Below, piece by piece: positions 1 through 56,736 of a stretch of DNA of 64,000 nt. The translations under genes and the position numbers were made by a program. Source of the stretch: Octopus vulgaris (Eukaryota); the NCBI GenBank assembly GCA_951406725.2, contig OX597814.1, positions 108,562,001 to 108,626,000 of the forward strand. The letters are read 5' to 3'. Below the pieces are notes generated by a model. It saw only the letters and a list, made by a program, of their open reading frames with translations, had not been told where the DNA came from and made no database searches. Position 1 is the first letter of the stretch. Every line of letters starts with the position of its first letter.

Positions 1-11
1 CGAAGAAGATA

Positions 12-1112
12 GTGTCTCGAGACGGGTACAAGATTAAACTAAACCAGATGAAAGAATCTCTCGAAGAGATAGAGAAGAGAACGGTAATATTCAAAACATA
101 CCGTAACATAGAAAGGAAAATAGACTTTTCGTCGGAAAAGGAAGTGGAGGCGTGCCTACTACCCATCTGGGATAAAATCACATTTTTAACCAGGGGTAAG
201 AGGTACGGAACTGTGGAAACTAGGTTCAAGACAGAAGAAGAAGCGAGGGAACATTCAATGAAGCCCCTAAAAACAGGCACAATAACCCTTCTGCCTATCT
301 ATAGAGGAAGGCGTATTTCAAAAGTTACGGTTGCCAACATACCGCCGGAGATCGAGCCCGAACTGATAGTGGCTGGAGTCACTGCAGGACTGGAAGACCA
401 AATGGAAGTGCGTGATGCCACGGTGGTAGAAGCCAAAAAGTGGCATGGACAGAAAGTACAAATTATTGTACAGGCAGAGCAGGCCGCCTTGGAAGAGATA
501 GGCGAGGTCATTGAAATAGGAGAGAGCCGGATGGCAGTAATGGTGGAGGGCCGGAAGCCCAGGTGTTTCACCTGTGGCAAGAAGGGCCACATCAAAAAGG
601 ACTGTAAGCCGGCGGAGAAGGAAAAAAGCGTACCCACAAAACCAAGTGCTCAAGTGGCGGCTGCAGAGACGACAGCCGCAACAGAAGTAGGGGAGGGGTG
701 GTCACAGGTTGCTGCGACAAAACGAAAGCACAACAACCCCTCCCCGGAGAAAATTATAAGCAAAGAGAAGAGAGAAGTAAAGAAGGCGAAGAAGCCGGAG
801 AGGGAGAACAGGGTGTATGTGGCGATGAATACCGCAAACAGAGAAGTGGTACGCAGAGTGGAGACTCAACACGTCGAGGAGGTGGAGATGGAAGCGAAAG
901 GTGGAGGCTGGAGATGCTACGTGATGGGACTGAAAGGGTTCAACACGTATGCAAACGACTTTAGAAAAGACGTAGGCACACCCAGAATGAGCAAGGAGGA
1001 TGCCCTGAAGGACGCAGAAAGAAAGAACAACAACAACGCGCCGAGTCCACGTTCATCTGAGGCAGAAGAGACGGGTCCCCCCCGCCGGCCGGACCCAGAG
1101 GAAATAAGGTAG
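12..1112 (+). CDS. Element A ORF1, gag-like nucleic-acid-binding protein with CCHC knuckle (N-terminus probably upstream of the window)
   Basis: VEGRKPRCFTCGKKGHIKKDC (CX2CX4HX4C); the frame is open back to the window start; homologous to the other ORF1s in the array. Confidence 0.88.
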   Translation: MSRDGYKIKLNQMKESLEEIEKRTVIFKTYRNIERKIDFSSEKEVEACLLPIWDKITFLTRGKRYGTVETRFKTEEEAREHSMKPLKTGTITLLPIYRGRRISKVTVANIPPEIEPELIVAGVTAGLEDQMEVRDATVVEAKKWHGQKVQIIVQAEQAALEEIGEVIEIGESRMAVMVEGRKPRCFTCGKKGHIKKDCKPAEKEKSVPTKPSAQVAAAETTAATEVGEGWSQVAATKRKHNNPSPEKIISKEKREVKKAKKPERENRVYVAMNTANREVVRRVETQHVEEVEMEAKGGGWRCYVMGLKGFNTYANDFRKDVGTPRMSKEDALKDAERKNNNNAPSPRSSEAEETGPPRRPDPEEIR

Positions 1113-1119
1113 GCAAACT

Positions 1120-4100
1120 ATGGCTGTTTACGTTGGATGCATAAATGTGCGCGTCCTGGTAGCGAACTGGAAACAAGGTCGTTTTCTAAACGATATCAGG
1201 GCGCGGAACTTAAATGTAATTGTCGCTACTGAGACACGAATCGAAGGGCCAAGAGATCTACTCCCGCTCATGGAAGGCTACGAGAAATTTATTTCTCCTG
1301 GACGGCATGTGGGCGGGAGTGGGGTGTTGGTTCTGCTTAAAAAAGATAGTGTCGCAGAGAAAAAGTTGATTTTTTCTGATTCAGAAGGTAGGCTGGTCGT
1401 CTTAGATCTGACGTTCAGTTGTGGTAAAGAAATCAGGCTGGTGGCGGTGTATGCACCTAATACGGGTCAGACTGATTTTTATCGAGGCTTGGAGAAGTTT
1501 CTTGGCACGTCGAAATCCATAGTCATGTTAGGGGACTTTAATGCCATATTCGACGCGCGCGTCGATGGCATTGGCTCGAAAGATAGGAAACCAAACACTG
1601 GCTTCCGGGATCTACTGAGTCACTTTCAGCTGGTAGATCCCTACAGACTTGAATTCCCGAACGCTCCACAGTGGACGTGGCTAAGTGGCGACGGGTCTAT
1701 CGGGTCTTACATAGACAGAATTTTTATTAGAAAAATAGATAAAGGATTAGTTAAGTGTCCACAGTTTCACACGGTCAGTTACAGCGATCACAGGATGGTC
1801 ACTGGCGAACTGAACCTAGATAAGTTAGGTAGTAGGGGATCCGGCTACTGGAAACTCAATAAGTCCCTCCTGGCTATGGAGGAGTACAGAAAGCGGATCG
1901 AGTTAGTAGTGAAGAGGGCGTTAACCGGTTCCATTATTAACAACAAATGGTGGTACGCCCTCAAAAGAGCCATAAAATACGAGTCCGTTAGATACAGCAT
2001 AGGTCTAGCAACTAGCGGGCGTAAGAAAGAGATGGGGCTAGTTAAGGCCTTAGAGGAAGCCATGAGAGCTGGCGATGGGGCCCAGGTTAGGCTGAAGAGA
2101 CTGGAGTTGAACCAGCACCTCGAAGCCCAACATATGGGTTGTATCGTCAGAGCTAGAATTCGCGCAATGGGGTGCGAGGGTATCAGGGCTGCCGGATGGG
2201 CACGAGTTGTGGAGGCTCAACGTGGAAACGATTCCACAATTAAGTCTGTGACGAATGGGCGAGGTGATGTGATCACCGAACCAGAGGAGATGTGTCGGAC
2301 GTTTCAGGAGCACTTCGCTCGGCTCTTTGGGGGCGACGGCGGACCGGAGGAGAGGGTGGACCTAACGGACATCCTCGCCGGGCTGCCGCGCCTCTCGGGG
2401 CAGGATGCGGAGAGCTGTGAAGCGTTGATCTCGCCTGAGGAGATAGCTGAGGTCCTGGCCGACTGCGGTGAAAGCAAGGCGCCGGGGATCGATGGTTTAC
2501 CTTACGAACTATATAAAAGAATGCCAGACTTGTTCGGGAACGTGCTGGCCGGCGTTTTCACGAACTGGCGGCAGAATGGGTTCATTCCCAGATCTGTACG
2601 TCGGGGAGTGGTGACGCTGATCAGAAAGGACCCGAGCAAGGGGGATAACATAGACAATTTTCGGCCCATCACTCTGCTAAATACAGAGGTGAAGATTTTG
2701 GCCAAGGTGTTAGCGAAAAGGTTGACGCGTGTCGCGGGTGGTCTGATCGGGAAGGCACAAACTTGTGCGGTCCCAGGAAGAACCATCCAGGACAATCTTC
2801 ACCTAGTACGCTACACAATAGAGAGGTTTGGGAATGACTCTGGCAAGGGTGGGGCATTGGTCCATTTAGACCAGAGTAAAGCGTTTGATAGGGTGAACCA
2901 TCGGTACCTGGTGTCCGTGCTGGCGCAGTTCGGTCTGGGCATTGGCTTCCTCAGGTGGATCATACAATTGTACGATAACATCGACTCGATCGTTCGGGTG
3001 AATGGCTTCCTCTCGAGGCCGTTCCGCATCAAACAGTCTGTTCGTCAAGGGTGTCCGCTCTCCCCGATTTTGTATGTGATGGCTCTTGAGCCATTGCTGC
3101 GAAAGCTGAGCGCCATCCCGATGAATCCAGGAGGTGGAGGATCTGTGACATCGTATGCGGACGACATCACCATCATCGTGACCGAGGTGGAACTCCTGCG
3201 TAGTGTGGGAGATGCCATCAAGGCTTACGAGACGGTGACAGGAGCAAAGATTAACCGGGAAAAATCGGTCGGCTTGCAACTCGGCACCTGGAGGGGCAAG
3301 TCGATGCCTTCGAATAGCATCGTGGGATGCTGGACGGAGGGCCCGGTTAAGCTGCTAGGGATCTGGTTTGGTCCAGGTCTCCAGATAGAAAAGAACTGGT
3401 CTGAGGTGTCGGGCAAGGTGGCTCACGCGGTCGGGACTTGGTCCGGACGGTGGCTGTCCTTGAAAGGGAGGGCGGAGGTGGCCAATGTGTTTTTAGCATC
3501 GGTCATCACCTACCGCCTGACCGCCGTCCCTTGTCCGGATTCGTGGTTGAGCAAGTTGGAGAGACAGATCTTCCACTTTTTGTGGAAGGGAAGTGTTCCT
3601 CTTGTAAGACGTTCTATCTGCTGTCAGAAACCGTTAAAGGGTGGCTTGGGGATGCCTTGGCTGATGATGCGCAGAGATGCGCTGAGGTTAAGGCACCTTT
3701 GGCTCTACCTGGATGGTGAACGGGTGTGGTCCCCGCTTGCGAAGCAGATGTTCCCCAGCTTTGTCAGTTTCGGTGGCAGAGAAACCTGGTTTCGTCGCAA
3801 ACTTAGATCGAGCATGTGGTATTCGGAGTGCCATAAGGCACTCTGCCACTTCCGCAAGTCGGGCAATGCCGGCGGCTTTGGTACCACCGCAGCTTTTTAT
3901 AGCAGGTTGGTAGAGGCCGGAAATGACGATGCCTTGGGAAGGACCTTGGGCCTCGATAGAAATCAGTTGGACAGCCTGTTCCGAAGGACGTTCGGGCCGA
4001 AGACATTGGATAACTTCCAGAAGTCTTTGACCTGGCAATGTTTCAGAGGAGCTTTACCCGTTCGGGATAAACTCACAAGGCATGGTTGGAGTGGACCATC

Positions 4101-4506
4101 GAACTGCCCAAGATGCGAGCGGGATCTGGAAACAGTCTCGCACGCTATTGTTCAGTGTCCGAAAGTCTCGGACGTGTGGGTATATGTCGAACACCTGTTG
4201 TCGGACGGAAGAAGAGTACAGCTATCGGCTGAGACAATTATAAAAATTGACTCGCCTAGCTTTTTGACAAGTGAAGGTAAGCATTGCTTTCTCAGTACAG
4301 TAGCAGTAGCGAAAGAGTGTATATGGAAGACTAGAATGAAAGCGGTAAAGACAGGCACCGTGATCTCTGGCTCCGCCTTGGTGACCTATTTCAGGTTCCA
4401 CCTAAAAAGAAAGGTGGAGTTGGAGAAGAGGTGTCTGTCTGCGTGTGAGTTCGATAAAATATGGAAGCGTGTGACACGGTTGCTGCGAGTGAGAGGAGCC
4501 ACGTAA
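1120..4506 (+). CDS. Element A ORF2: apurinic-like endonuclease + reverse transcriptase + C-terminal zinc finger
   Basis: APE motifs CINVR, ATET, AVYAP, LGDFN, IDRIF, SDH; GSGYWKLN; RT motifs KAPGIDG, FRPITLLN, DQSKAFDRV, QGCPLSP, YADD; CPRC..ETVSHAIVQC; uninterrupted. Confidence 0.95.
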   Translation: MAVYVGCINVRVLVANWKQGRFLNDIRARNLNVIVATETRIEGPRDLLPLMEGYEKFISPGRHVGGSGVLVLLKKDSVAEKKLIFSDSEGRLVVLDLTFSCGKEIRLVAVYAPNTGQTDFYRGLEKFLGTSKSIVMLGDFNAIFDARVDGIGSKDRKPNTGFRDLLSHFQLVDPYRLEFPNAPQWTWLSGDGSIGSYIDRIFIRKIDKGLVKCPQFHTVSYSDHRMVTGELNLDKLGSRGSGYWKLNKSLLAMEEYRKRIELVVKRALTGSIINNKWWYALKRAIKYESVRYSIGLATSGRKKEMGLVKALEEAMRAGDGAQVRLKRLELNQHLEAQHMGCIVRARIRAMGCEGIRAAGWARVVEAQRGNDSTIKSVTNGRGDVITEPEEMCRTFQEHFARLFGGDGGPEERVDLTDILAGLPRLSGQDAESCEALISPEEIAEVLADCGESKAPGIDGLPYELYKRMPDLFGNVLAGVFTNWRQNGFIPRSVRRGVVTLIRKDPSKGDNIDNFRPITLLNTEVKILAKVLAKRLTRVAGGLIGKAQTCAVPGRTIQDNLHLVRYTIERFGNDSGKGGALVHLDQSKAFDRVNHRYLVSVLAQFGLGIGFLRWIIQLYDNIDSIVRVNGFLSRPFRIKQSVRQGCPLSPILYVMALEPLLRKLSAIPMNPGGGGSVTSYADDITIIVTEVELLRSVGDAIKAYETVTGAKINREKSVGLQLGTWRGKSMPSNSIVGCWTEGPVKLLGIWFGPGLQIEKNWSEVSGKVAHAVGTWSGRWLSLKGRAEVANVFLASVITYRLTAVPCPDSWLSKLERQIFHFLWKGSVPLVRRSICCQKPLKGGLGMPWLMMRRDALRLRHLWLYLDGERVWSPLAKQMFPSFVSFGGRETWFRRKLRSSMWYSECHKALCHFRKSGNAGGFGTTAAFYSRLVEAGNDDALGRTLGLDRNQLDSLFRRTFGPKTLDNFQKSLTWQCFRGALPVRDKLTRHGWSGPSNCPRCERDLETVSHAIVQCPKVSDVWVYVEHLLSDGRRVQLSAETIIKIDSPSFLTSEGKHCFLSTVAVAKECIWKTRMKAVKTGTVISGSALVTYFRFHLKRKVELEKRCLSACEFDKIWKRVTRLLRVRGAT

Positions 4507-4759
4507 ACATGCTGTAGGTTGGCTGCCGAGTTTCGGTGGGAATAGCAGGGCTCGTGGGGTCGGCAATCCTGGTGTTCCCGCTTCATGTGTTACCTTTATG
4601 TTGTGTTGTTGTTGTATATCATTCGATTTATCCGATTTTTTGTAATTTAAAAAAAAAAAAAAAAAGTTCATTTTTCTGTAAATACCATATGTGTCTCATG
4701 ACCCCAAATCATGATGTATTGTCCCATTCTTCGTTGGCCCCTTGTGGGTAATAAAGAAA

Positions 4760-6413
4760 TCGCGTTTTTTTTGCGCTCTGTAAAATTCGGTAAAAAGAAA
4801 AAAGAACAAAAAGTGAATGGTTGTTGGTGTAAAATTTTGAACATAGTTAATGCGGTTTCGCGTCTCACTGGTTCTGCGCGTTACACTTTTTCGGTTCGGG
4901 AGGCCGTTTTTCGGTCTGAGGCGACTATGAGCCGCCTCCATCAAGCGGAGGAGATGGAAGGGAGAATTTACTCTGAAATTTCGACGGAAGTATCGACATC
5001 TGAGGAGGAGTTGGCGGTGAAAAAGATGGAAGGCACCTACGCAGGTGTAACGAAGAAGTCAACGGAAAGAGAGATAGACCTGGCTAAGTTGGCGGGCCTC
5101 CAGGAGTTTGTGAAGGAGGACGAGAACGGTGAAGTTGAGCTGCTGCCTCCAGTAGGGCGCGGAGACTGGTTCCATCGTAGAACCATTAAATATAAAGTAT
5201 TTATGAATGGAGGTAGAAAGATGGAAGTAATTAACATGGAAGCAATTGAAGAGGCTCTCAAACAGACAGGAGAAGAAATTGTGTACATGACAAAAGGATT
5301 ACAATATGGAACCATAACGGTGCAATTTAAAAGTGAAAAGCAGCCAGGAATGTAGCAGCCAAGGTGGTGAGTACAGAAAAGATTTACTTGTTACCCTCGT
5401 ATCTGAATAGGCGGGACAACCAGAATTAGGGTGGAGGAATACCTCCACACCTAGAGGGCGAATTAATAACGGCTGCGGTTATAAAAGGAAATGAAGATAA
5501 AGTGGACATCCTCCACGCCATTATGAAATATGAAGGCGTGAGAGGTGCCACACTAGTTATGAACATTCAGCGGAGGCGGATGTTATAGAGAGGATTACGG
5601 ACAGTATAAAAACTGGAAATATTATTATGAGAGTGTGGGTGGAGGGTAGGGCGCCCAGGTGCTACAAGTGTGGCCAAAGGGGTCACATAAGAGCCTACTG
5701 CCCTCCCCCACCAAAGGAAAAAGAAAAGGAAAGCGTTGAGGAAGCCTCAGGAGAGGAAGAAAATAAACAGAAACAAACAGAGAAGGAAACGACAGAAGAA
5801 GAGGAGATGCAACAAGAGTGGAAAGAAGGGGGAACAAAGAGAAAAAGAAGGAAAAAGAAAAACTGTGCGAAGCCCCAACCCACCCCGACACCACCCATAC
5901 CCTTGGAGTCCCATCCTTCCCCTGCAAACAGTGATTCCACCCACTCCCCGCCTACAAGAAAAACAAAAACAGACACACAGAGCAAAGAAAGTCCCAAGAC
6001 CCATTTTTTATGTGTTATACATGGGAAAGACATACAAAACGTTAAAAAACGGGTGTTAACCAAGTGGTACGAACACGAAGATTGTAGCTACACGGCTGTG
6101 GATAGTGATGATACGGGTATATTGGCGAGAAGGTTTGAGGAAGAGGGTGTGTGTTGGAGGTCAGTGGAAATGAAAGATGAATGGATAGAGATGGCTAAAA
6201 GAAAAACGAATGTTGTGATAGGAAAAAAAGGAATACTAATTGGAAATGGGTGAAGAAGGACAGACAAGTGATGCTGGCGGATGGGGCCGTCGGTATCACT
6301 CTCATATATCATTTTCATATTCCATTTTGCTCATATATATGTAATTGTGATGTTCTATGTCCCCAATGTTTGTAACGTCCCCTCTATGTAGCCCCTAGTG
6401 GGTAATAAAGAAA
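4760..6413 (+). mobile_element. Element B: ORF1-only non-autonomous Tx1-like element
   Basis: Starts TCGCGTTTTTTTTGCGCTCTG like C; ORF1 homology only; ends GTCCCCTCTATGTAGCCCCTAGTGGGTAATAAAGAAA ~150 bp after ORF1. Confidence 0.85.
4927..6271 (+). pseudogene. Element B ORF1, split by several frameshifts (decay or assembly indels)
   Basis: Pieces 4927-5355 (TYAGVTKK, TKGLQYGTITVQFKSE) and 5627-6253 (VEGRAPRCYKCGQRGHIRAYC) are collinear with the C ORF1. Confidence 0.8.
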
Positions 6414-6431
6414 GAATGTAGAGAAAAAAGG

Positions 6432-8091
6432 TCGCGTTTTTTTGCGCTCTGTAAGATTCGGTAAAAAAGAACAAGGGGCGTTGTTGTTGTTGTGGAAATT
6501 CTGAACGGCGTTGACGCGGTTTCGCGTTTCGCTCGTTCAGCGCGTTACACTTTTTCTGTTTTGGCGGCCGTTCTCGGTCTGTCAGACAGAAGGAAATGGA
6601 CAACCCCAACCTGATGGGAGATACGGCTGCAGTTTTTGAGTCTTTAACAGACTTGTCTACGTCTGAGGAGGAGCTAGAAATAGCAGTGAGGAAAATGGAT
6701 CAGAAGCTGGGTTATACCTATGCCGGTGTAACCAAGAAGGCGGAAGAGAAAGGGGTCGACATGACCAAGTTGCCAAGTTACCAGAAATACATGAAAAAGG
6801 AAAGCGGTGAGGTGGAACTATCACCGACACCCAGGAGAAAAGAATGGTATGATAAGAGGACCATTGTTTACAGGGTGTTCGCAAACGAAAGGAAGAGGGT
6901 AGAAGTTGTAACCATGGAATGGATAGAGGAAGCCCTGCGAAGAACTGAGGAGGAAATAAATTTTCTGACTCGAGGATCCAAGTACGGTACCGTAGTTGTG
7001 CATTTCAAAACTGAGTCTGCAGCGAGGAAGATGGCGGCGAAGCCGGTGAAGTCAGAAAAGGTAACCCTATTACCTACGTATTTAAACAGGAAGATTACAC
7101 GAATAAGGGTGGAGGGAGTGCCACCAAACGTGGAGGCAGAATGGATTGTGGCGGCTGTGATCAGCGGCCACGAGGACGAAGTGGATATTCTCCATGCCTC
7201 GGTTAAGTCCGAGGGCTGGAGAGGCGTAACAGTGGAGCTGAACGTACAGGCAGAGACCGAGGTACTGGTGGACCTGACGGAAAGCATCAGACTGGGAGAC
7301 GTGGTCATGAGAGTGTGGGTGGAGGGCAGGGCTCCACGTTGTTACAAGTGTGGCCTGAGGGGTCACATAAGAGCCTTCTGCCCTCCCCCAGGGAAAGAAA
7401 TGGATTCCGAACCAGAGAGAGAGAAGCAGAAACCAGAGGAGAAGGAAACAAAGGAAGAGAATACACAGAAATGGAAGGAAGCTGGAAGTAAGAGGAAGAG
7501 AAGAATATGTGGAAAAAAAGAAAATAATATGGAACTCCAATCTACCCCAAAACCTCCCACACCCTCTGAGTCTCACCCTATCCATGCAGACATTGAACCC
7601 ACCCGCTCCCCCCCCAACAAGAAAACAAAAGAAAAAAAGAATACACACACACAAGAGATTGAAATCGAACCCAGGCCGTACATTTGTACTATGACTGAAC
7701 AGAAAGAAGTTAAAAGTCTAATGGAAGAGTATAAATGGTATGATGTTGGAGAGACTAGGTATGCTGTGATTGAAAAGAAGAACATAGGTGAGTTTATGGG
7801 GGGAGGTGAAAGATATAAGAATGAGCGATGAATTCGTGGAAAATATGAATGAGTATTTCGGAGTAAGAATGGATATGGAATTTATTCGTATTGGCAAAGA
7901 ACATTCAAGTGACTATGAAAAACAAAGGACAGGTAAGTGATGCTGACGGACGGGGCCGTTGGTATCGCTTTCATTTTATCATTTTTTTCGTTTAACAATT
8001 CATTTTCATAAAGTTTAATTATAATGTTCTATGTCCCCATGTTTTGTTATGTCCGCCATTCTTCGTAGCCCCTTAGTGGGTAATAAAGAAA
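6432..8091 (+). mobile_element. Element C: ORF1-only non-autonomous Tx1-like element
   Basis: 5' ~130 bp similar to B; single ORF1; ends GCCCCTTAGTGGGTAATAAAGAAA; no ORF2 sequence. Confidence 0.87.
6596..7831 (+). CDS. Element C ORF1 (411 aa; probably extends to TGA at 7940 if one G-run indel near 7800 is corrected)
   Basis: TRGSKYGTVVVHF, LLPTYLNRK, VEGRAPRCYKCGLRGHIRAFC; the alternative frame after the G run is open to ...RTGK*. Confidence 0.85.
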   Translation: MDNPNLMGDTAAVFESLTDLSTSEEELEIAVRKMDQKLGYTYAGVTKKAEEKGVDMTKLPSYQKYMKKESGEVELSPTPRRKEWYDKRTIVYRVFANERKRVEVVTMEWIEEALRRTEEEINFLTRGSKYGTVVVHFKTESAARKMAAKPVKSEKVTLLPTYLNRKITRIRVEGVPPNVEAEWIVAAVISGHEDEVDILHASVKSEGWRGVTVELNVQAETEVLVDLTESIRLGDVVMRVWVEGRAPRCYKCGLRGHIRAFCPPPGKEMDSEPEREKQKPEEKETKEENTQKWKEAGSKRKRRICGKKENNMELQSTPKPPTPSESHPIHADIEPTRSPPNKKTKEKKNTHTQEIEIEPRPYICTMTEQKEVKSLMEEYKWYDVGETRYAVIEKKNIGEFMGGGERYKNER

Positions 8092-8115
8092 TCAGATTTG
8101 AACATCTGGAGGAAA

Positions 8116-9885
8116 TCTATTTGCGTGTTGTTATCTGTGATTAGACGTTGAAATTTTGTTGTGTAAAGTGATTAATATCGCGCGAGGCGTTTGCCTCCAC
8201 GTGTGGAAACCTTCCGAAGAAGGTGAATTGACCCTCTAGTCATGGCGACTTACGCGGGGGTCACGGGAAAGAAAAATAATGATTCGTCGATAATCGTGAA
8301 GGATGTTTTCTTTGAGAAGAGTAAACTCAAAGAATATGAAAAGCTATTCAAAAGGGAGGGTGATAGCGTGAAGCTAATCCCCCCCGCGAAAGCAAAAGAG
8401 GACAAAGAAAACAAGACTGTAACATATAGAACACAAGACAAAAATACAAAGAAACTGGCAAGAGTGGAGATAGCAGAAATCGAAAAATGTCTGGGAGACA
8501 TAATGGGGAAATCGACCTACGTGAGTAGAGGCAAGAAATTTGGTACGGTGGAGGTGAGATGTGCAACGGAAGAAATTGCAGCCTCACTGGCTACCACTGT
8601 ACTAAGAGCGGAAACATTTATAATGTGGCCCTCATACAAGGGAAGAAGAGGGGTCCGGGTTAAAATCCCGAATATACCCCCAGAAGTAAAAACAGAATGG
8701 CTGGCAACAGCTATTCTAGGAGCAGCAGAAGAGGAAGTGGAGGTGGAATCCTTTAAGGAGTCCAACGCGATAAACTGGAGAGGATATGGGGTAGAACTGT
8801 GTTTGATGGCCACAAAAGAGGACATTGAAAGGTTCCCCTACAGAATAGAAATTGAAGATGAGAAAACCCTCAGTGTAATTGTAGAGGGAAGAAAGCCAAA
8901 CTGCTACTTGTGCGGGACAAGGGGGCACATTAAAAAAGAGTGCCCGTTATACGAATTCGTAGCGGAGTGCGAGCAGGAACTCGAAGAAAAGAAGAACACG
9001 GTAAATGAAAAAGAAAACATAGAAAAGGAAACAAAACAACAAGAGAAAGGAAATAATAAGTCAATGAAGGAAAAAGAAATAAAAGAAAAGAAAGAAATAG
9101 AACCAAAACAGAGTCAGGAAAAAAAAAGGAAAAAGAAACAACAGGAAAAAAACAAGAGAGAGATCAGAATCAAACGAAAAGAAAAGACGGCACACAAAAA
9201 GAAAAAGAAAAGGAACATAAAACACGAGAGAAAGAGAGAACAGACAAAGAACCAAAAAGACAAGAGAAGGAAGAGAAAGAAAAGAAGGCAAAAAGAGAGA
9301 AAGAGAGAAACAAAGAGAGGAGAACAAGGAAGAAATAAGCCCGAAAAGAAAAATGAAGGGAAAACGTAGGACGGAAACAAGATTACTGCTTCTACAAGTT
9401 AGTAACCTTCCATTTCTGCCCTGAAATGAAGAATTGACAAGTAATACGGAGGGACATGTGTGGGTCAACAGGATGACCGATCAGTGGCAGGAGACTGCTC
9501 TAATCCCCGAAGAAAGAGTCGCTGAGTTCCTCAGAGCTGCCGGTGAGAGTGTAACATTTTACACGAGTGTTCGAGTGAGAGAGCGGCTGCCTGAGGGCTC
9601 AGTGATAGACTTTAGAGAATTGAAAACTATCATGGAATATGTATAGAACTGTGAGAAGAGAGAGAAGAAAGAAGAGAAAAAAAAAAATATTGTGAAATAT
9701 ATGTGACGAAAATGTAACCTCTCGATTCCGGGGATCGAGTGGGCATTTACATCTCATTGTAAATATTCTTTCATATGTCATTTTTTACTTTTATTTTTTC
9801 CTTTTCTTGTCATTCGCTTTCTTATTTTAAGTTCCCCGATTGTATTGTCCCCTCTATGTTCGCCCCTTGTGGGTAATAATAAAAT
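8116..9885 (+). mobile_element. Element D: ORF1-only non-autonomous Tx1-like element with target-site duplication
   Basis: Flanked by CATCTGGAGGAAA at 8103-8115 and 9886-9898; ends GTCCCCTCTATGTTCGCCCCTTGTGGGTAATAATAAAA. Confidence 0.88.
8242..9369 (+). CDS. Element D ORF1 (C-terminus probably frameshifted in the A-rich tract; may continue to ~9646)
   Basis: MATYAGVT, SRGKKFGTVEVR, PSYKGRR, PNIPPE, VEGRKPNCYLCGTRGHIKKEC. Confidence 0.83.
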   Translation: MATYAGVTGKKNNDSSIIVKDVFFEKSKLKEYEKLFKREGDSVKLIPPAKAKEDKENKTVTYRTQDKNTKKLARVEIAEIEKCLGDIMGKSTYVSRGKKFGTVEVRCATEEIAASLATTVLRAETFIMWPSYKGRRGVRVKIPNIPPEVKTEWLATAILGAAEEEVEVESFKESNAINWRGYGVELCLMATKEDIERFPYRIEIEDEKTLSVIVEGRKPNCYLCGTRGHIKKECPLYEFVAECEQELEEKKNTVNEKENIEKETKQQEKGNNKSMKEKEIKEKKEIEPKQSQEKKRKKKQQEKNKREIRIKRKEKTAHKKKKKRNIKHERKREQTKNQKDKRRKRKKRRQKERKRETKRGEQGRNKPEKKNEGKT

Positions 9886-10108
9886 CATCTGGAGGAAATC
9901 AATTTTTTGCGTGTATAGTAAGTTATTATATTGTGTATATTTTCTCCATTGTGATCTACTGTGTGTCTAGCTGTCTTTCTGTGTTGTTGTAAAACTATTG
10001 AAGTCGGCCTTCGTGCGAGGGCTTCGTGTTGGTGTTTCCCCCTCCGTGGGGGAAAAAACTATCATTATCTTGGGTGTGCCAAGGGCTTGTTAAAGCCAGT
10101 TATCGGAG

Positions 10109-11104
10109 ATGGAATCCCCCATCTCGTATTCTCCTGTGACAAGTGATGCAGGATCACCGGCGGTGTCGCCAAAGAAAAAAGAGGCGGGGTCGCCAAAGGA
10201 AAAAGATATTCCAGCACCAGCGAGAAAATTTTCGGAAGTAGCTGGGAAGAAAATTAAAAAAATTAACGTGGACAACCTGGGAAAACATGCGGACTGTGTG
10301 TCAAAAGAGGGCACGGAAGTAACCGTGGCTTCAAACGCCCAAATACAGGAGGAAATTTCGAATAGGAGAATAATCTATAAGACATTCAGTATAACAAGCA
10401 GAGCAATACAAAAAATAGAGGAGAAAAAGATCGAAAACTGCTTAAAGCCGATAATGGATAAAATTACATATATCAATCGAGGGAAGAAATACGGCACAGT
10501 GGAGGTGAGATTCACATCAGAGGAGGTAGCGAAGAAGCTATCCATGGAACCCATAAAAGCGGAGGATATTGTTCTCCTACCCCTGTATAAAGGCAAGAGA
10601 ACTTCCAAGATCACAATGAACAACATTCCGCCAGAAGCGGATGCCGAAGTCCTGGTGGCAGCAGTTATGGTAGGCCTGGAGGAAAAAATAAACATCCTCC
10701 AGGCCACCGTAGAAGAAGAAGAATTCTGGAAAGGGCAAAAAATAATAATAGCCATACAAGCAGAAGTACAAACCCTGGAAGAGATCCCAGAGACTCTAAG
10801 GATAAGCGAAGATGAAAGAGTCACAGTCTTCGTAGAGGGCAGAAAGCCGAGGTGCTTCGGCTGCGGTAAGAAAGGGCATGTAAGGGCAGAATGCCAGCCC
10901 CAACCCAAACCGCAGGAAGCAGCTCAGCCAAGTGGAAAAGAAGAAGCCGTGTCATCAGAAACAGCGCTGGTCGGCCCAGGAGGGTCGACTGAAGGTGTGG
11001 AGGTGACAGAGGCAGCGGAACCAACGGAGGAGGAAAAAAAGAGCGAGGAAACGAAAAAGGAGGAGGGGTGGTCAAAAATCACTAGAAAAAAAAAGAAAAA
11101 CTGA
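10109..11104 (+). CDS. Element E ORF1 (true end probably near 11430; frameshifts in A runs)
   Basis: NRGKKYGTVEVRF, LLPLYKGKR, NIPPE, VEGRKPRCFGCGKKGHVRAEC; closest to the A ORF1. Confidence 0.85.
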   Translation: MESPISYSPVTSDAGSPAVSPKKKEAGSPKEKDIPAPARKFSEVAGKKIKKINVDNLGKHADCVSKEGTEVTVASNAQIQEEISNRRIIYKTFSITSRAIQKIEEKKIENCLKPIMDKITYINRGKKYGTVEVRFTSEEVAKKLSMEPIKAEDIVLLPLYKGKRTSKITMNNIPPEADAEVLVAAVMVGLEEKINILQATVEEEEFWKGQKIIIAIQAEVQTLEEIPETLRISEDERVTVFVEGRKPRCFGCGKKGHVRAECQPQPKPQEAAQPSGKEEAVSSETALVGPGGSTEGVEVTEAAEPTEEEKKSEETKKEEGWSKITRKKKKN

Positions 11105-11434
11105 AACCACCCCTCCCAAAGTAAACCAAAAAAAAAAAAAGGAGTCATTGAACTCATTTATGGCCGTTAAGGCCACGAACAATAGACTCGGAAATGTGTT
11201 GGTAGCGATGGCCAAAGTAGAAAAAATAGGAGGAAAAACGACTATGTTTTGTACAGAATAGGCCGGAAGGATTACGGACGGATAAAGTCCGAATTTTTCC
11301 ATGACGTAGGCCCGCTCAGAATGGATATAACATCTCCATATATATTCGAGGGCCTGCGTCAGACTCCCCCACGAGGCCCAGAAAAAGAGAAGGAAGAAGA
11401 AGAAAAAACCGAACCACTGATATAAAGGTAAGTA

Positions 11435-14400
11435 ATGGATTACATTTATGTTGGTTGTTTGAATGTGCGCGGCCTAGGGAGCAGGCTGGAAGCAAGGTCG
11501 CTTCCTGCATGATATCAGGTCGCGTAATTTAGATGTTATTGTTGCTACAGAAACCCGGTTAGAGGGGCCAAGAGGTCTACTCCCGCTGTTTGACGGCTAC
11601 GAGAGTTTTTTCTCTCCTGGCAGTCCTACAGGCGGGAGTGGGGTGTTGGTCCTATTAAAAAGAAACCGGGTTTCTGAGAAAAAGTTAATTTTTGCAGATC
11701 CAGAAGGTAGGCTGGTCGTCATGGATTTGACGTTCAGTAATGGTAAAGTTATCAGACTGGTTGCAATTTACGCACCCAACCATACAGGGCAAAGTGATTA
11801 TTTTCGTGAACTAGAAAACTTTCTTGGTACTTCGCATTCATTAGTGGTGCTAGGAGACTTTAACACAATTTGCAAAGCGGATGTAGATTATGTTGGCTCG
11901 TGTCCAGATAGAAAAGGCAACAGTGGCTTCATGGAACTGCTAAGCCGCTTTGAGCTAGCAGATCCTTATAGGCTGGAATTTCCGAACGCTCCATTGTGGA
12001 CATGGTCAAACAGCGACGGATCTTCCAGGTCATATTTAGATAGAATACTAATTAGAAAAGTAGACAGTAAAATAGCTAAGTGTCCACAGTTTTACCCGAT
12101 CAGCTACAGTGATCATAAAATGGTCACTTGTAAGCTTGACATAGATAAGGTTAAAAATAGAGGATCCGGTTACTGGAAACTTAATACGTCCCTTTTGGCG
12201 ATTAAGGAGTACAAAGACCGGATTAGGAATATAATTCAGAGGGCACTATCTGGTACCATCATTAATAACAAATGGTGGTACGCCCTCAAACGAGCCATCA
12301 AGTTTGAGTCTATTAGATATAGCATAGGAGTAGTGGCTAGAGAGGCTAGAAGGGAAACTACTCTAGTTAAGGAATTAGAGGAAGCCATGAAAACTGGCTC
12401 TGCGGCTCAGGTGGCGTCCAAGAGACTGGTGTTAAACCAGCACCTCGAGGCCAAACACATGGGCTGCATTGTCAGGGCTAGAATCCGTCATATGGGATGT
12501 GAAGGAATCAACGCCGTGAGATGGGCCCGAGTGGTGGAAGCTCAGCATGGTAACGATGCCACGATTCGATCTTTGACGAACCAACAAGGTGAGTTGATAA
12601 ACGAACCCGAGGAGATGTGTGAGGCCTTTCAGGAGCACTTCGCTCAGCTTTTCGGTGAGTGCGGCGGACTGGATAGGAGGAGGGCCTTTACGGACCTACT
12701 CGACGGTCTGCCGCGCTTATCGGGGCGAGATGCGGAGGGCTGTGAAGGGCCAATCACGCCTGAGGAGGTGGTTGAGGCAATGGCGGACTGCGGCGCGGGC
12801 AAGGCGCCGGGTTTGGATGGTCTACCCTATGAGTTATATAAGAGTATGCCAGACTTGTTCGGGCACCTACTGGCGGAGGTCTACGCGAACTGGCAGCAGA
12901 ACGGGCTTATACCCAGATCTGTGCGCCGGGGAGTAGTGACTCTCGTCAGAAAGGACCCGAGCAAGGGGGAGTGCATTGATAATTTCAGGCCCATCACTCT
13001 GCTAAACACAGAGTTGAAGATTTTGGCCAAAGTGTTATCGAAAAGATTGGCGCGTGTCGCGGATGGTCTGATCGGAGGGGCACAGACATGTGCCGTTCCG
13101 GGCAGATCCATTCAGGATAATCTCCATCTAATGCGGTACACTATAGAGGGGTTTAATAGTGATTCTGGCAAGGGTGGGGCACTGGTCCATTTAGACCAAT
13201 CTAAAGCTTTTGATAGGGTCGACCATCGTTACCTGGTATCTGCCCTGGCACAGTTCGGGCTGAGCCTTGGCTTCCTCAGGTGGATTATCCAAATTTATGA
13301 TAACATCGACTCGGTAGTTCGGGTGAACGGCTTCTTGTCGAAGCCGTTCAAAATCAAACGCTCGGTTCGTCAAGGGTGTCCGCTCTCCCCGCTTTTGTAC
13401 GTGATGGCTCTTGAGCCATTACTGCGAAAACTGAGCGGCATCCCGAGACAGCCAGGTAACGGAAAATCAGTGTCAGCGTACGCGGATGACATCACCATCA
13501 TCGTAACCGAAATGGACCACCTATGTAAAGTAGGCAAGGCCATAGAGGTTTACGAGACGGTGACAGGAGCAAAAGTTAATCGCGAAAAGTCAGTCGGCTT
13601 GCAACTCGGCACCTGGAGAGGCAAGTCGATGCCTCCTGACAGCGTCGTGGGACGTTGGACGGAGGGTCCGATTAAACTGCTAGGGGTCTGGTTCGGTCCA
13701 GACCTCCAAATAGAGAAGAATTGGGGCGAGGTAACGAGCAAGGTGGCTGCAGTAGCCAAGACCTGGTCTTGGCGGTGGCTATCCCTGAAAGGGAGGGCGG
13801 AGGTGGCCAATGTGTTTATCACATCGGTTATCACCTACCGCCTTTCCGTCGTTCCTTGCCCTGATTCGTGGTTGATCAAGTTGGAAAGACAGCTCTTCTA
13901 CTTCTTGTGGAAGGGCGGGAAACCACTTGTGAAACGCTCTACTTGCTGTCAACAACCGTTAAAGGGTGGGCTAGGGATGCCTTGGCTGATGATGCGCAGA
14001 CATGCGCTGAGGTTAAGACATCTGTGGCTCTACCTGGATGGTGAACGGGTGTGGTCTTCGCTAGCAAAACTGATGTTTCCCAAGTTCACTAGTTTCGGTG
14101 GATGGGAAACCTGGCTGAATCGTAGATCGAAACTTGGTACTTGGTACACGGAGTGTCGCAAGGCTCTCCTGCTATTCCGTCGCTCGGGCAACGCCTGCGG
14201 TGGGGGTTCCACCACATTCTTCTATAGAGGGTTGGTAGAGGCGGAATGTGAAGATACCTTGGGGGAAACCCTAGGTCTCGACGATAATCAGCTGGCCAGT
14301 CTGTTCCGACGTACGTTCAAGCCGAGGACACTGGACAACTTCCAGAAGTCTCTGGCATGGCAATGCTACAGAGGAGCTCTACCTGTTCGGGATAAACTCG

Positions 14401-14831
14401 CAAGGCACGGTGGCCAAGACAGTCCGATATGTCCAAGATGCGGGCGGGATAGGGAAACCGTCCCGCACGCTATTGTTCATTGTCCGGACGTGTCTGAGGT
14501 GTGGGTTTATGCCGAACAGCTGTTGTCAGGTACACGAAGAGTACAGCTGTCGACTGAGTCGATTACAAAAATTGACCCACCGGATTTCCTCGTGAATGAA
14601 GGTAAGTTTCGTTTTCTCGTTGTAGTAGCAATTGCGAAAGAAGTGATATGGAAGACGAGAATGAAAGGTTTACAGTCAGGCAAGTTCATCTCCGGCCCTG
14701 GTTTGATGAATTACTTCATCTTTCACCTGAAAAGGAAGATAGGGCTGGAGAGAATATGCCTGACTAGGAGAGTGTATGAAGAACGATGGAAGGATGTAGC
14801 ACGAAAGTTGCGAATGAAAGTTACAACATAA
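11435..14831 (+). CDS. Element E ORF2 (APE-RT-zf); one apparent frameshift near 11480
   Basis: ATG at 11435 gives MDYIYVGCLNVRGL, matching A's MAVYVGCINVR; a shifted frame gives WKQGRFLHDIR and joins the 1062-aa ORF containing GDFN, SDH, QGCPLSP, YADD. Confidence 0.9.
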
Positions 14832-15076
14832 ATGTAATACCAAGTGCAACCAAAAGTATCAGTGGGGAGGCGGGGCTCGTGGGGTCCGAGCTGAACCCGC
14901 ACCCACTCCATCTGTAATGTCTTCCGGTCTATTCCATCATTCGATTTTGTGTGTATTCTTGTAATTTCATGATATTTTTAAATCCGATTTTTGTGTAAAA
15001 ACCATCCGTATGTCTGACCCCAAATCAGATTGTTTTGTCCCCTCTATGTTTGCCCCTTGTGGGTAGTAATAAAACA

Positions 15077-15400
15077 ATCTGGAGGAAAGCACCATCGAGA
15101 AGTGTCTTGGTGCGACTATGAAAGATATCTAACCAGAGGCGGTAAATTCGCCACAATAGAAGCAAGGTTCGAGTCAACGGAGCGTGCAAGGGAGTACTCG
15201 ACTCGAACTTGCAAAGTGGAAATATTTTATTTTTACCTTTATATCTGGGACGTAGGACGTCCCGGAAAAAAATTTTAATGCCCCCCCACCCCGAAGTAGA
15301 GGTAGGTTGGATTGTAGCCACACTTCTATACAAGAGGGAGGACAAGATACAATTGATCGAAATTACAAGAGACGGGCTAACAATTCCAGTCTGTGAATAA
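15077..15400 (+). pseudogene. Decayed ORF1 remnant of an older related element; insertion target of D and E
   Basis: LEESTIEKCLGATM, YLTRGGKFATIEARFES, LFLPLYLGRRTSR, PEVEVGWIVA all match ORF1 blocks of A-E, with frameshifts. Confidence 0.8.
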
Positions 15401-41231: not shown

Positions 41232-41517
41232 ATATGGTTGTGTGTCTGTTTGTCCTTCCCAACATCGCTTGACAACCGATGCTGGTGTGTTTACGTCCTC
41301 GTCACTTAGCGGTTCGGCAAAATAGACCGATAAAATAAGTACTAGGCTTACAAAGAATAAGTCTTAGGGTCGATTTGCTCGACTAAAGGCGGTGCTCCAG
41401 CATGGCCGCAGTAAAGTGGTTGAAAAAAGAAAAGAAAAAGAGCTTTATTTTGAGGGATTCGTTTTGGATGTAATGTGTGTGTGTGTTATTATTCCTAAAA
41501 CACATCAATACACGTAC

Positions 41518-43241
41518 ATCAAACGCTCGGTTCGTCAAGGGTGTCCGCTCTCCCCGCTTTTGTACGTGATGGCTCTTGAGCCATTACTGCGAAAACTGAG
41601 CGGCATCCCGAGACAGCCAAGTAATGGAAAATCAGTGTCAGCGTACGCGGATGACATCACCATCATCGTAACCGAAATGGACCACCTATGTAAAGTAGGC
41701 AAGGCCATAGAGGTTTACGAGACGGTGACAGGAGCAAAAGTTAATCGCGAAAAGTCAGTCGGCTTGCAACTCGGCACCTGGAGAGGCAAGTCGATGCCTC
41801 CTGACAGCGTCGTGGGACGTTGGACGGAGGGTCCGATTAAACTGCTAGGGGTCTGGTTCGGTCCAGACCTCCAAATAGAGAAGAATTGGGGCGAGGTAAC
41901 GAGCAAGGTGGCTGCAGTAGCCAAGACCTGGTCTTGGCGGTGGCTATCCCTGAAAGGGAGGGCGGAGGTGGCCAATGTGTTTATCACATCGGTTATCACC
42001 TACCGCCTTTCCGTCGTTCCTTGCCCTGATTCGTGGTTGATCAAGTTGGAAAGACAGCTCTTCTACTTCTTGTGGAAGGGCGGGAAACCACTTGTGAAAC
42101 GCTCTACTTGCTGTCAACAACCGTTAAAGGGTGGGCTAGGGATGCCTTGGCTGATGATGCGCAGACATGCGCTGAGGTTAAGACATCTGTGGCTCTACCT
42201 GGATGGTGAACGGGTGTGGTCTTCGCTAGCAAAACTGATGTTTCCCAAGTTCACTAGTTTCGGTGGATGGGAAACCTGGCTGAATCGTAGATCGAAACTT
42301 GGTACTTGGTACACGGAGTGTCGCAAGGCTCTCCTGCTATTCCGTCGCTCGGGCAACGCCTGCGGTGGGGGTTCCACCACATTCTTCTATAGAGGGTTGG
42401 TAGAGGCGGAATGTGAAGATACCTTGGGGAAACCCTAGGTCTCGACGATAATCAGCTGGCCAGTCTGTTCCGACGTACGTTCAAGCCGAGGACACTGGAC
42501 AACTTCCAGAAGTCTCTGGCATGGCAATGCTACAGAGGAGCTCTACCTGTTCGGGATAAACTCGCAAGGCACGGTGGCCAAGACAGTCCGATATGTCCAA
42601 GATGCGGGCGGGATAGGGAAACCGTCCCGCACGCTATTGTTCATTGTCCGGACGTGTCTGAGGTGTGGGTTTATGCCGAACAGCTGTTGTCAGGTACACG
42701 AAGAGTACAGCTGTCGACTGAGTCGATTACAAAAATTGACCCACCGGATTTCCTCGTGAATGAAGGTAAGTTTCGTTTTCTCGTTGTAGTAGCAATCGCG
42801 AAAGAGGTGATATGGAAGACGAGAATGAAAGGTTTACAGTCAGGCAAGTTCATCTCCGGCCCTGGTTTGATGAATTATTTCATCTTTCACCTGAAAAGGA
42901 AGATAGGGCTGGAGAGAATATGCCTGACTAGGAGAGTGTATGAAGAACGATGGAAGGATGTAGCACGAAAGTTGCGAGTGAAAGATACAACATAAATGTA
43001 ATACCAAGCGCAACCAAAAGTATCAGTGGGGAGGCGGGGCTCGTGGGGTCCGAGCTAAACCCGCACCCACTCCACCCGTAATGTCTTCCGGTCTGTCCCA
43101 TCACTCGATTTCTGTCCATTTATTGTAATTCATGAAAATTTTAAAACCCGATTTATTGTAAAAACCCATTCGTTTGTCTGACCCCATCATCAGATTGTAT
43201 TGTCCCATCTATGTTCGCCCCTTGTGGGTAATAATAAAACA
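41518..43241 (+). mobile_element. 5'-truncated copy of element E with a perfect 16-bp TSD
   Basis: Near-identical to 13353-15076; ACATCAATACACGTAC at 41502-41517 and 43242-43257; one-G deletion near 42427. Confidence 0.95.
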
Positions 43242-43365
43242 ACATCAATACACGTACGTTTATGTATTTGTCAATTTATATATAAAAATAATTTAACAGG
43301 AAACTGATTACTCAATACTTTTTAGTTGAGTACATCTTTTATTTAAGTTTTACAAAGGAAAAGAG

Positions 43366-52169: not shown

Positions 52170-52775
52170 GTTCTGCACACCCTAGTCCAGTGCCCGAGTA
52201 TTACTGACCTGTGGGTTTATGTCGAACACCTGCTGTCGCGTGTAGGACGGATCTGGCTATCACCTGAATCCATTGTGAAGATTGCACCGCCGTCCTCTTT
52301 TGGCCGGGAGGGGCAGGCAATTTTTATTTGTCTAGTGGCTGTAGCGAAAGGGGTAGTATGGTGGACCCGTTTGAAAGGGCTAAAGACAGACACTTTCCTC
52401 TTTGGTCAAGCCCTCATCAACTTTTTCAAGTTTCACTTGAAAAGGAAGTTGAGGGTGGAGAGATTGAGGTGTTGCCTTGTAGCAAGTTTGTTGAGAGAAT
52501 GGCCAGTATGAAAGGGCCAATTCTGAGCATGCACCTGTAAAAAGGAAATTAAAGAAGAGCTCTTATCCTGCTGATCAGGCACCCGTGGCTTTTGTGGGGT
52601 TTTCCACAAGCACCTTAAAGTGCCTCCTCTATTGGGAGTTTTAATTTAATTTTTATTGTTTTGCTTTGTTTACACAAAGAAAACCCATTGTATCGTCCTG
52701 TTTTTGTCTTTTATGTTGTTGTATGTCATTTAATGTTTTTGTATGTGAAGCCTTGTGGCTAATAAAACAATAAAT
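52170..52775 (+). mobile_element. Older 3' fragment of a related Tx1-like element
   Basis: HTLVQCPSITDLWVYVEHLLS...VAVAKGVVWWTR...FKFHLKRK matches the ORF2 C-terminus of A/E; ends AGCCTTGTGGCTAATAAAACAATAAA. Confidence 0.85.
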
Positions 52776-55683: not shown

Positions 55684-56736
55684 ATGGATAAGAGAAAGAT
55701 TGATGAGGTTAATTCTGGTGTTAAGAGGAGGAGGAAAGTGTTAACTCTGGACAGTAAACTGGAAATTATAAAAAGACATGAACGTGGTGAGAGTAAAGCA
55801 AAAATAGGACGAGATTTAGGAATGAATGAGTCGACTGTGAGAGCGATTCTGAAGAAGATTGATGACTATAAAGAAAAAGGTAAAGTAGCGTCAACTTTGG
55901 GTCTGCAAACAACAAGGAATAGAAGTCGGATTATGATTGAAATGGAGCATCTTTTGTCTTTGTGGATTGAAGATTGCAACCTTAAGCAAATTCCTCTAAA
56001 CACCATGACTATTAAAATGAAAGCTTTAAATATTTTCTCTGCAATTAAAAGAAATTTAACGAAAGAAAATGAAATTCTAACAGCAGCCGAAATGAAAGAG
56101 ACTTTTACTGCTAGTTCTGGTTGGTTTGAGAGGTTTAAAACTCGAACAGGGATTCACAATGTTCGTATAACAGGGGAGGCTGGCTGTGTAGACAAATATA
56201 CAAGAGACAAAGATCCAAACACTTTTAAAAAAATAATTGAAGAACGAGATTATGATGACAAACAATTATTTAATACTGATGAAATGAACTTATATTGGGT
56301 AAAAATGCCTTCGAAAACGTTTTTAATAAAGAAAGAAAATATACAAAAATCACAACCTTTGCTTGGTTTTGATGAAAAAGACGATAGAAATGATGAGGAT
56401 TTGTTTGAACCTCATTCAAAAGAATTAAGTGATGATGAACTCCTTAATTTAGATCGGGAGTGTGTGTACAAAAAAGCAGTCGGTCAAGCGGGCGATAAAG
56501 AGGAACAACAAAACATAGAAATTTCTGTAAAAGGACTTGATACAATGTTTCAAGAATTTGAAAAATTCAAACAGTTAATAATGGATATTGACCCTAACAT
56601 TGAAAGAAGAACAAAAGTTCAGCAGAACTTGGACAATGTACTGTCTTGCTACAAACAGATCCATGCAGAGAAAACGAAAGAAAACAATAAAAACGGAACA
56701 CAAATGACTTTGGATAAGTATTTTTCAAAGAAATAA
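55684..56736 (+). CDS. pogo/Tigger (CENP-B/TIGD-like) DNA-binding protein, 350 aa, lacking most of the DDE domain
   Basis: RRKVLTLDSKLEII...MNESTVRAILK (CENP-B N-terminal HTH), EMEHLLSLWIED...FTASSGWFERFK (second HTH), QLFNTDEMNLYW, then directly an acidic Tigger-like C-terminus; no stops. Confidence 0.82.
   Translation: MDKRKIDEVNSGVKRRRKVLTLDSKLEIIKRHERGESKAKIGRDLGMNESTVRAILKKIDDYKEKGKVASTLGLQTTRNRSRIMIEMEHLLSLWIEDCNLKQIPLNTMTIKMKALNIFSAIKRNLTKENEILTAAEMKETFTASSGWFERFKTRTGIHNVRITGEAGCVDKYTRDKDPNTFKKIIEERDYDDKQLFNTDEMNLYWVKMPSKTFLIKKENIQKSQPLLGFDEKDDRNDEDLFEPHSKELSDDELLNLDRECVYKKAVGQAGDKEEQQNIEISVKGLDTMFQEFEKFKQLIMDIDPNIERRTKVQQNLDNVLSCYKQIHAEKTKENNKNGTQMTLDKYFSKK

Follow-up and report, generated by a model that had tools for sequence, protein, structure and literature searches.

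We analyzed a 64,000-nucleotide (nt) stretch of Octopus vulgaris DNA (assembly GCA_951406725.2, contig OX597814.1, positions 108,562,001 to 108,626,000, forward strand), hereafter the window, whose positions 1-15,076 are a head-to-tail stack of five retrotransposons of the non-LTR kind (lacking long terminal repeats), A to E, at one target. The subject of this report is a predicted RNA structure in the 3' untranslated regions (UTRs) of these elements and their relatives, in which the loop of a hairpin (stem S1) pairs with a distant downstream strand to form a second helix, S2. Elements A and E have an ORF2 with endonuclease, reverse transcriptase (RT) and zf-RVT domains, and B, C and D encode a zinc-knuckle ORF1 alone. 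Pfam matched the ORF2 of A and E and found zf-CCHC in the ORF1 of A, B and D; the CCHC motif of C and E was seen by eye. The window copy of E has broken frames where ORF1 ends and where ORF2 begins, and an open frame runs over 11477-14831. The features of the stack are as follows.

1..4760 (+): element A, autonomous Tx1/L1-type long interspersed element (LINE), starting ~460 bp left of the window
up to 1112, and 1120-4506 (+): A ORF1 with CCHC knuckle, and A ORF2 with apurinic endonuclease (APE), RT and zf domains
4535..4582 (+): A long 5' stem S1, z = -3.2
4555..4561 (+): A 5' strand of the long-range helix S2, TGGGGTC
4700..4706 (+): A 3' strand of S2, GACCCCA, within a small hairpin at 4696-4714
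4737..4755 (+): A terminal hairpin and AATAAA; this block plus ~20 nt upstream is common to a short interspersed element (SINE)
4761..6412 (+): element B, ORF1-only, a frameshifted copy
6267..6300 (+): B S1 hairpin, loop A-TGGGG, with the S2 5' strand at 6282-6286, z = -5.6
6361..6365 (+): B S2 partner CCCCA, outside any hairpin; terminal hairpin at 6391-6403
6430..8092 (+): element C, ORF1-only, with ORF1 at 6596-7831
7935..7970 (+): C S1 hairpin, loop A-CGGGG (7951-7955), z = -5.4
8035..8039 (+): C S2 partner CCCCA; terminal hairpin at 8068-8081
8104..8115 (+): 12-mer resembling a target-site duplication, recurring at 9887-9898 and 15077-15088
8116..9886 (+): element D, ORF1-only, with ORF1 at 8242-9369
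9714..9750 (+): D S1 hairpin, whose loop has CGGGG (9729-9733) on its 3' side, z = -2.4
9834..9838 (+): D S2 partner CCCCG; terminal hairpin at 9862-9874
9899..15076 (+): element E, of the autonomous type and a young family
14861..14907 (+): E S1 stem, which holds the S2 5' strand TGGGGTC (14880-14886), z = -1.5
15016..15022 (+): E S2 partner GACCCCA, within a small hairpin at 15012-15030
15034..15069 (+): E linker with terminal hairpin and AGTAA, the stretch that is common to E and the SINE

A preliminary description of the window, made from its letters, had proposed that in all five elements a GGGG loop pairs with a CCCC run downstream. The 14 stretches it quoted were letter-exact at their coordinates, and the 11-bp stems of B and C do differ as it said, by two one-sided, pairing-preserving changes (G-U to A-U and G-C to G-U). 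Its six-pair helix in D held in part: the 5' C-G flank truly covaries, whereas the sixth pair (A-T) borrows a base of the hairpin stem. The pairing is present in each of the five elements, but on trees A shares descent with E and B with C, so that they represent three lineages rather than five samples. When we shuffled the dinucleotides of the downstream UTR, a perfect 5-nt complement arose in 139-558 of 1000 shuffles for the short helices (B, C, C2, C', D), compared with 1-23 of 1000 where the match has 7-8 nt, as in the autonomous families. On their own, the 4-5 bp pairings of B, C and D therefore carry no significance, and the window by itself is weak evidence. Such matches being common by chance, and the families sharing ancestry, the G and C runs could be fortuitous or inherited, with no selected pairing.

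We therefore compared relatives from across the 2.8 Gb genome. They were gathered by ORF2 protein and by terminal or junction motifs that include neither run, and family K was gathered by DNA similarity; 11 of 71 ORF2 matches had no recognised 3' end (insertions, truncations, decayed ends) and were omitted from clustering. All data come from this one genome, 20 family types were compared, and counts are of distinct sequence variants. In family E, UGGGGUC/GACCCCA was exact in 42 of 48 variants, with three partners not located and three single changes, while in the A lineage S2 was exact in 23 of 29 and ended in a U-G pair in another three. The helix was likewise kept in J (6/7), I (3/3), G1 (8/8), G (5/7) and G3 (3/6). 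It read UGGGAUC/GAUCCCA in all five H variants, was kept with one G-U wobble in all six G2 variants, and read AGGGUUUU/AAAACCCU in 24 of 28 K2 anchor hits. A local competitor of the K2 helix varies (15 AACCTT, 5 AACATT, 1 unscored) and the distant partner is constant (21/21). The ORF1-only families B, C, C', D, D' and F each occupy many loci with 3-29 distinct variants, and among ORF1-only elements S2 was kept in B (7/7), C2 (4/4), F (3/3), C' (GGGGG/CCCCC, 13/14), D (CGGGG/CCCCG, 14/14) and, with a G-U end, D' (3/5).

Across the 20 family types, two-sided changes were found at four of the seven S2 positions. Position 1 is U-A, A-U, G-C or C-G; position 4 is G-C or C-G; position 5 is G-C, A-U, U-A or G-U; and position 7 is C-G or U-A. 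When the families were reduced to 10 distinct states, with the ORF1-only strands placed by the analyst beside the G/C runs, 57 of 60 cells were Watson-Crick, a value reached by none of 200,000 column shuffles, which ignore phylogeny. A 24-row MAFFT alignment (A2), which excludes K, K2, N and the ORF1-only families and misplaces the G-group partner so that three rows are gaps, had 95.8% of S2 cells paired with one two-sided S2 pair only; on four measures the whole structure in it beat 500 of 500 shuffles, and on a fifth measure 498 of 500. In quick ORF2 trees with no named Tx1 reference (the homologues P0001-P0004 being unnamed), H and G2 were nested among families with the G-C pair, and the K/N clade was the outgroup. 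The S2 changes are thus separate events.

A blind test with the outside protein P0002 as query yielded two new families, N and N2, whose ORF2 is 57-58% identical to that of E. Their 22-nt S1 loop has no GGGG, and the segment with which it pairs has its end 44 nt upstream of the AATAAA end. S2 comprises 9 and 10 contiguous Watson-Crick pairs, or 14 with one bulged U, and was matched by 0 of 500 shuffles in each family. Of 26 N loci, 24 had the exact motif pair, one had a variant of it and one was unscored; in N2 the pair was exact at 4 of 4 loci. Because position 4 is C-G in N and N2, even the G core covaries. By sequence comparison, then, what is conserved is the helix and not the GGGG run. 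The GGGG/CCCC label of the preliminary description captured a conserved, covarying long-range pairing and was too narrow for H (GGGA/UCCC), K2 and N/N2 (GCUUUUCUU/AAGAAAAGC); the pairing is supported more strongly than the window alone could show, and it exceeds chance once the genome-wide families are used. Two-sided changes at four positions in separate lineages, together with the blind N/N2 result, make it very improbable that the runs are a product of chance or inheritance.

We conclude that these 3' UTRs very probably fold into a long-range H-type pseudoknot: a hairpin loop is complementary to a downstream strand with compensatory changes, and the partner lies 54 to about 240 nt downstream of the loop. 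Several observations weigh against this reading and the function proposed for it below. In the old family K only 4 of 18 anchored copies were exact, with unpaired changes in old single copies (the per-column majority across 30 copies is UGGGUUUU/AAAACCCA). Two of five D' copies have an uncompensated G-to-U change in the core, and family C has spread with a C-A mismatch at position 1 (23 of 29 variants, the window copy included). The helices of the ORF1-only families are just 4-5 bp (~-7 to -9 kcal/mol) over 54-103 nt. Local registers compete for the G-run in D, E, A, G1, G2 and K, as judged with folding models (ViennaRNA, in which pseudoknots are not modelled). Finally, none of 118 ends of the SINE that shares the terminal hairpin contained an S2 partner strand when six partner motifs were sought. 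With part of the loop masked by local folds in several families, the knot may need the aid of a protein to form.

The shape of the loop suits a single folded molecule. The 5' strand of S2 lies at the 3' side of the S1 loop, preceded by 1-2 nt where S2 has 5 bp (B, C, D, F) and by 6-7 nt where it has 8-14 bp (K2, N); in A, E, H, I, J and G it is preceded by 0-1 or ~5 nt, according to whether a small inner stem forms. H-type pseudoknots allow such loop spacings for helices of these lengths, and the geometry thus fits an H-type knot within one molecule. G-U pairs in G2, in D' and in the S1 stems point to the sense strand as the one that folds, although the C-A of family C would be a wobble on the opposite strand. 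In A and E the partner strand had been suggested to lie in a loop of its own, making a kissing interaction. A small partner hairpin is indeed found in E, A, H, I and, shortened, in J, but none was seen in G, G1, G2, G3, K, K2, N or the ORF1-only families, and we rejected the kissing loop as the general form. The hairpin covaries in E, A, H and I (helix 4 of the alignment) and competes with S2 pairs 6-7, and may be an alternative fold in its lineages.

Three side observations concern the same region. The motif CATTCGATT, in the loop-3 linker (4620-4628 and 14938-14946), hardly varies among the autonomous families A to J, and no partner for it was found. In one H copy (L332, minus strand, 3' UTR) three tandem units of the S1 loop are present. 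In the B/C group, the S1 hairpin opens with CAGGTAAGT (7930-7938, and most B, C and C' copies), which perfectly resembles a 5' splice site and has its intron side enclosed in the S1 stem; a similar AAGGTAAGT stands at the ORF1/ORF2 junction of E (11425-11433).

Covariation is blind to whether the strands pair in cis or between two RNAs of one family, and S2 could instead join molecules into dimers or chains, with ORF1-only RNAs riding along with ORF2-encoding ones. The B, C, D and F cores fit those of A, E and G, and kissing loops are reported to dimerise Ty1 RNA (PMC5454406). We nevertheless regard this as quite improbable: the single-molecule geometry is favourable, and C' and D, which share the target of E, match their own partner better than that of E at position 1, which disfavours mixed pairing of helper and passenger.

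The elements have family-specific target sites, as in the Tx1/L1 clade. E, C, C' and D are inserted at ACATGGAGGAAA, and the flank is particular to the family in G1, G2, H, I, K2 and N. Fixed targets differ among close families: (TTA)n for K and K2, (TATC)n for N and N2, GAAATTCGGCAAAG for G2, AGAGCTAACAA for G1 and TTGGAT for I. Family C was found at both the E and the G2 targets, and the helper proteins are thus not strict about the S1/S2 flanks. The UTRs themselves did not account for target choice by complementarity to the landing site, since the mean match in the last 60 nt was 6.06 for own and 6.06 for cross targets (16 pairs, 3' flank only); E, D, D', G and K2 have landing-site matches of 7-9 nt ~25-33 nt from the end. 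Elements stand head to tail in arrays, and one type of junction has 173 exact instances. The first junction pattern used matched this window alone, because the target here is a variant. The array itself lies in a decayed ORF1-like repeat, ~30 nt behind a TATAAA (L064, ~490 bp left of the window; 15077-15350). Long pure tandem arrays elsewhere (C47, C50, C4:93.80-93.83 Mb; L341) consist of intact K2 with a ~5.87 kb period and of ORF1-only units of 1.68 kb. We also saw shortened elements in which an E-type UTR has no ORF2 end before it (L076, minus, end 2157; L339, plus, end 2627), which suggests recent internal deletions. The window holds the following further features, and an open reading frame of 350 amino acids at 55684-56736 has CENP-B_N and HTH_Tnp_Tc5 domains, as in a pogo/Tigger-like transposase fragment.

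15077..15350 (+): 3' half of the host repeat (decayed ORF1-like), the insertion site of the array; end approximate
41518..43242 (+): E-family copy truncated at the 5' end, between the two halves of a 15-bp target duplication (41503-41517 / 43243-43257)
43044-43050 / 43180-43186 (+): S2 of the truncated E-family copy
52185..52775 (+): 5'-truncated copy of the distant family K, with a tail that continues into (TTA)n
52597-52603 / 52680-52686 (+): S2 of this K copy, GGGTTTT / AAAACCC

Downstream of the knot, the terminal hairpin before AATAAA also covaries (CCC/GGG, GCC/GGC, AUCC/GGAU, ACC/GGU). An 18-mer from it has 92,991 exact matches in the genome, most of them due to a tRNA-headed SINE, in which all 30 that we inspected lay. 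The SINE joins the LINE tail at ~position 15,034, and the terminal 35-45 nt alone are common to SINE and LINE. An ORF2 protein (ORF2p) of this group is therefore likely to copy knot-free RNA, and because the SINE reaches a high copy number with no partner strand, the knot is probably inessential for priming. A TGGGGTC in the SINE body lies in a local hairpin; it was judged coincidental, since it occurs also in related SINEs whose tails differ. Insertions of family H into the SINE fall at CGTATTTCGTCTG and show target duplication, in 3 of 3 full-length copies (L324, L332, L336). At this site 45 of 118 SINE ends are followed by SINE sequence, and GGTAT comes directly after the tail in 55 of 118. 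SINE tandem repeats of 184 nt begin at the same site (L002-L030) and look like site-specific self-insertion. In the B/C group the last 45 nt seem to have been exchanged between families independently of hairpin type, which suggests tail swapping by template switch. No Rfam model matched any A-E UTR at E values up to 5 or came near its gathering score in the N UTR, and no layout of the hepatitis delta virus (HDV), hammerhead or twister kind was seen by eye.

What might the knot do? In A-clade R2 elements, the element protein binds a pseudoknot, hinge and stem in the 3' UTR, and compensatory mutations restore activity (PMC11601368). On this model, and given the structure, we put at about even the chance that the knot helps the element's proteins to select their RNA as template. 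S2 (5-14 bp) would close the S1 loop on the sense RNA, with the U-rich linker of 54 to about 240 nt looped out. The knot would thereby come to lie 13-45 nt or less from the terminal hairpin, and the two with their linker would make up a compact pseudoknot-linker-hairpin module resembling that of A-clade R2. The linker and terminal hairpin would form the minimal docking and priming signal for ORF2p, sufficient for the SINE, and the knot would contribute affinity or correct folding, raising template preference for the mRNAs of LINEs and ORF1-only half-LINEs. Selection would retain it in both, since these must compete for ORF2p. A role in ORF2 recognition, one of those raised in the preliminary description, is plausible, with an absolute need ruled out by a SINE that has the terminal hairpin and the target preference and lacks the partner strand. 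Our estimate stays level because the success of the knot-free SINE fits a role in mRNA stability or in binding by the ORF1 protein (ORF1p) about equally well.

The same pseudoknot could act instead on the fate of the mRNA, protecting or defining the 3' end by AATAAA or aiding export or translation. Protein-coding elements (presumably Pol II), whether autonomous or ORF1-only, keep the knot and the tRNA-headed SINE lacks it, read-through RNA of head-to-tail arrays needs a defined end, and a plant LTR retrotransposon RNA is reportedly stabilised by the triple helices of the element for nuclear expression (ENE) (PMC12501189, PMC13541005). Yet the partner lies 35-80 nt inside the 3' end rather than at it, and most copies finish in short AATAAAGAAA or AATAATAAAA tails, not poly(A). 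Moreover, the A-E UTRs of the window lack an internal U-rich loop that could grip poly(A), so that we rejected the ENE here as a candidate; in K and N it was rejected because the U-rich loop is terminal and its partner ~45 nt or more inside the end. An effect on mRNA fate seems possible but distinctly less probable than template selection. Zinc knuckles bind exposed G-rich loops, as is familiar from retroviral nucleocapsid work, so a packaging or loading signal for ORF1p was also considered. All ORF1-encoding family types examined have the knot, the SINE does not, and a CCHC knuckle is present in ORF1. N and N2, however, have another sequence in place of the G-run, and the covariation shows selection for pairing rather than for exposed Gs, making a signal of this kind unlikely.

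For the favoured reading, help in template selection, a further elaboration is suggested by the loops themselves. In N and N2 the 5' part of the loop, UCUUUUC, matches the partner AGAAAAG in 24 of 25 variants, the tract being mirror-symmetric, and K and K2 have UUUU in the loop against AAAA in the partner. CU(C/U)G against GA is retained in E, A, J, I and H, although the hairpin partner of this motif is poorly kept (helix 2, 59% paired). No such loop-strand motif is present in G, G2 or G3. Modelled on telomerase, the knot would place a pyrimidine strand in the major groove of S2 as a third strand, with U-A-U and C-G-C triples and the ORF2 RT docked on it; we propose this tentatively and consider it rather doubtful. 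The possible triples may number up to seven in N/N2, four in K/K2 and two in A/E, and an alternative duplex or a duplication may also fit the mirror-symmetric N/N2 tract. Telomerase pseudoknots have such triples (PMC7583470, PMC13541005). The likeness is that of an H-type knot in an RNA used by a related RT, whereas here the knot is in an mRNA 3' UTR and the triples are predicted, with none in G, G2, G3 or the ORF1-only families. If it is true, the pseudoknot-gripping mode of telomerase and R2 would extend to L1-clade elements, and the families would offer a natural series of knots for testing template choice.

Much of the setting is of already-known kinds, namely site-specific Tx1 families, ORF1-only derivatives and tails shared between SINE and LINE. 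As far as its main text goes, PMC4494074 describes Tx1L, Keno, Kibi, Koshi and Tx1-Mar together with SINEU as APE-RT LINEs with family-specific transposon or microsatellite targets, with tandem insertions around a duplicated target and with a SINE of the same target preference; unlike the octopus elements, they are given no 3'-UTR structure in that text ('secondary structure' and 'stem' have 0 matches). ZfL2-1 and ZfL2-2 (PMC4176376) and monocot L1 (PMC3747384) similarly have a compensated terminal hairpin common to a LINE and a tRNA-SINE, although the text seen describes single hairpins with no long-range pseudoknot. Families B, C, C', D, D' and F have ORF1 only, a LINE 3' end and many dispersed copies, as HAL1-type elements do, and HAL1, HeT-A and Ag-Sponge are likewise non-autonomous and keep ORF1 and the 3' end (PMC5786205); the octopus families differ in their Tx1-type origin, shortened knot and own S1 stems. 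The nearest parallel is A-clade R2 of birds and turtles, which is also target-specific and non-LTR and combines divergent sequence with the same order of pseudoknot, short linker and terminal stem (PMC11601368). Its own features are a single ORF, a restriction-like endonuclease, a knot compact in the last 65 nt and a ZnF3 contact, as against the two ORFs, APE type and predicted knot span of 54 to about 240 nt of the Tx1-type group. An actual A-clade R2 3' module was rejected: loop 3 is at least 54 nt, the window UTRs have no GGAAAAG hinge and the protein is of the APE type.

A metagenome scan for relatives in other organisms yielded a single weak match of 41 residues. As to expression, the S2 positions in contigs of four runs had no other letters, such contigs being unable to show ends or strand. 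No report of a 3'-UTR pseudoknot in the Tx1/L1 clade turned up in the literature searched; subscription papers, Repbase and the supplements of PMC4494074 and PMC4824008 may hold related tails.

The usual view of L1-clade elements is that poly(A) or a hairpin drives them, and to our knowledge the choice of template RNA by a LINE protein is known structurally for R2 and human L1 only. The young intact elements of the octopus form a natural allelic series with knots of 5 to 14 bp, with or without a possible third strand. Together, the half-LINEs that keep the knot and a SINE that is free of it make the contribution of the knot beyond the terminal hairpin directly testable, and the system may have relevance to tools for RNA-templated, site-specific gene insertion.

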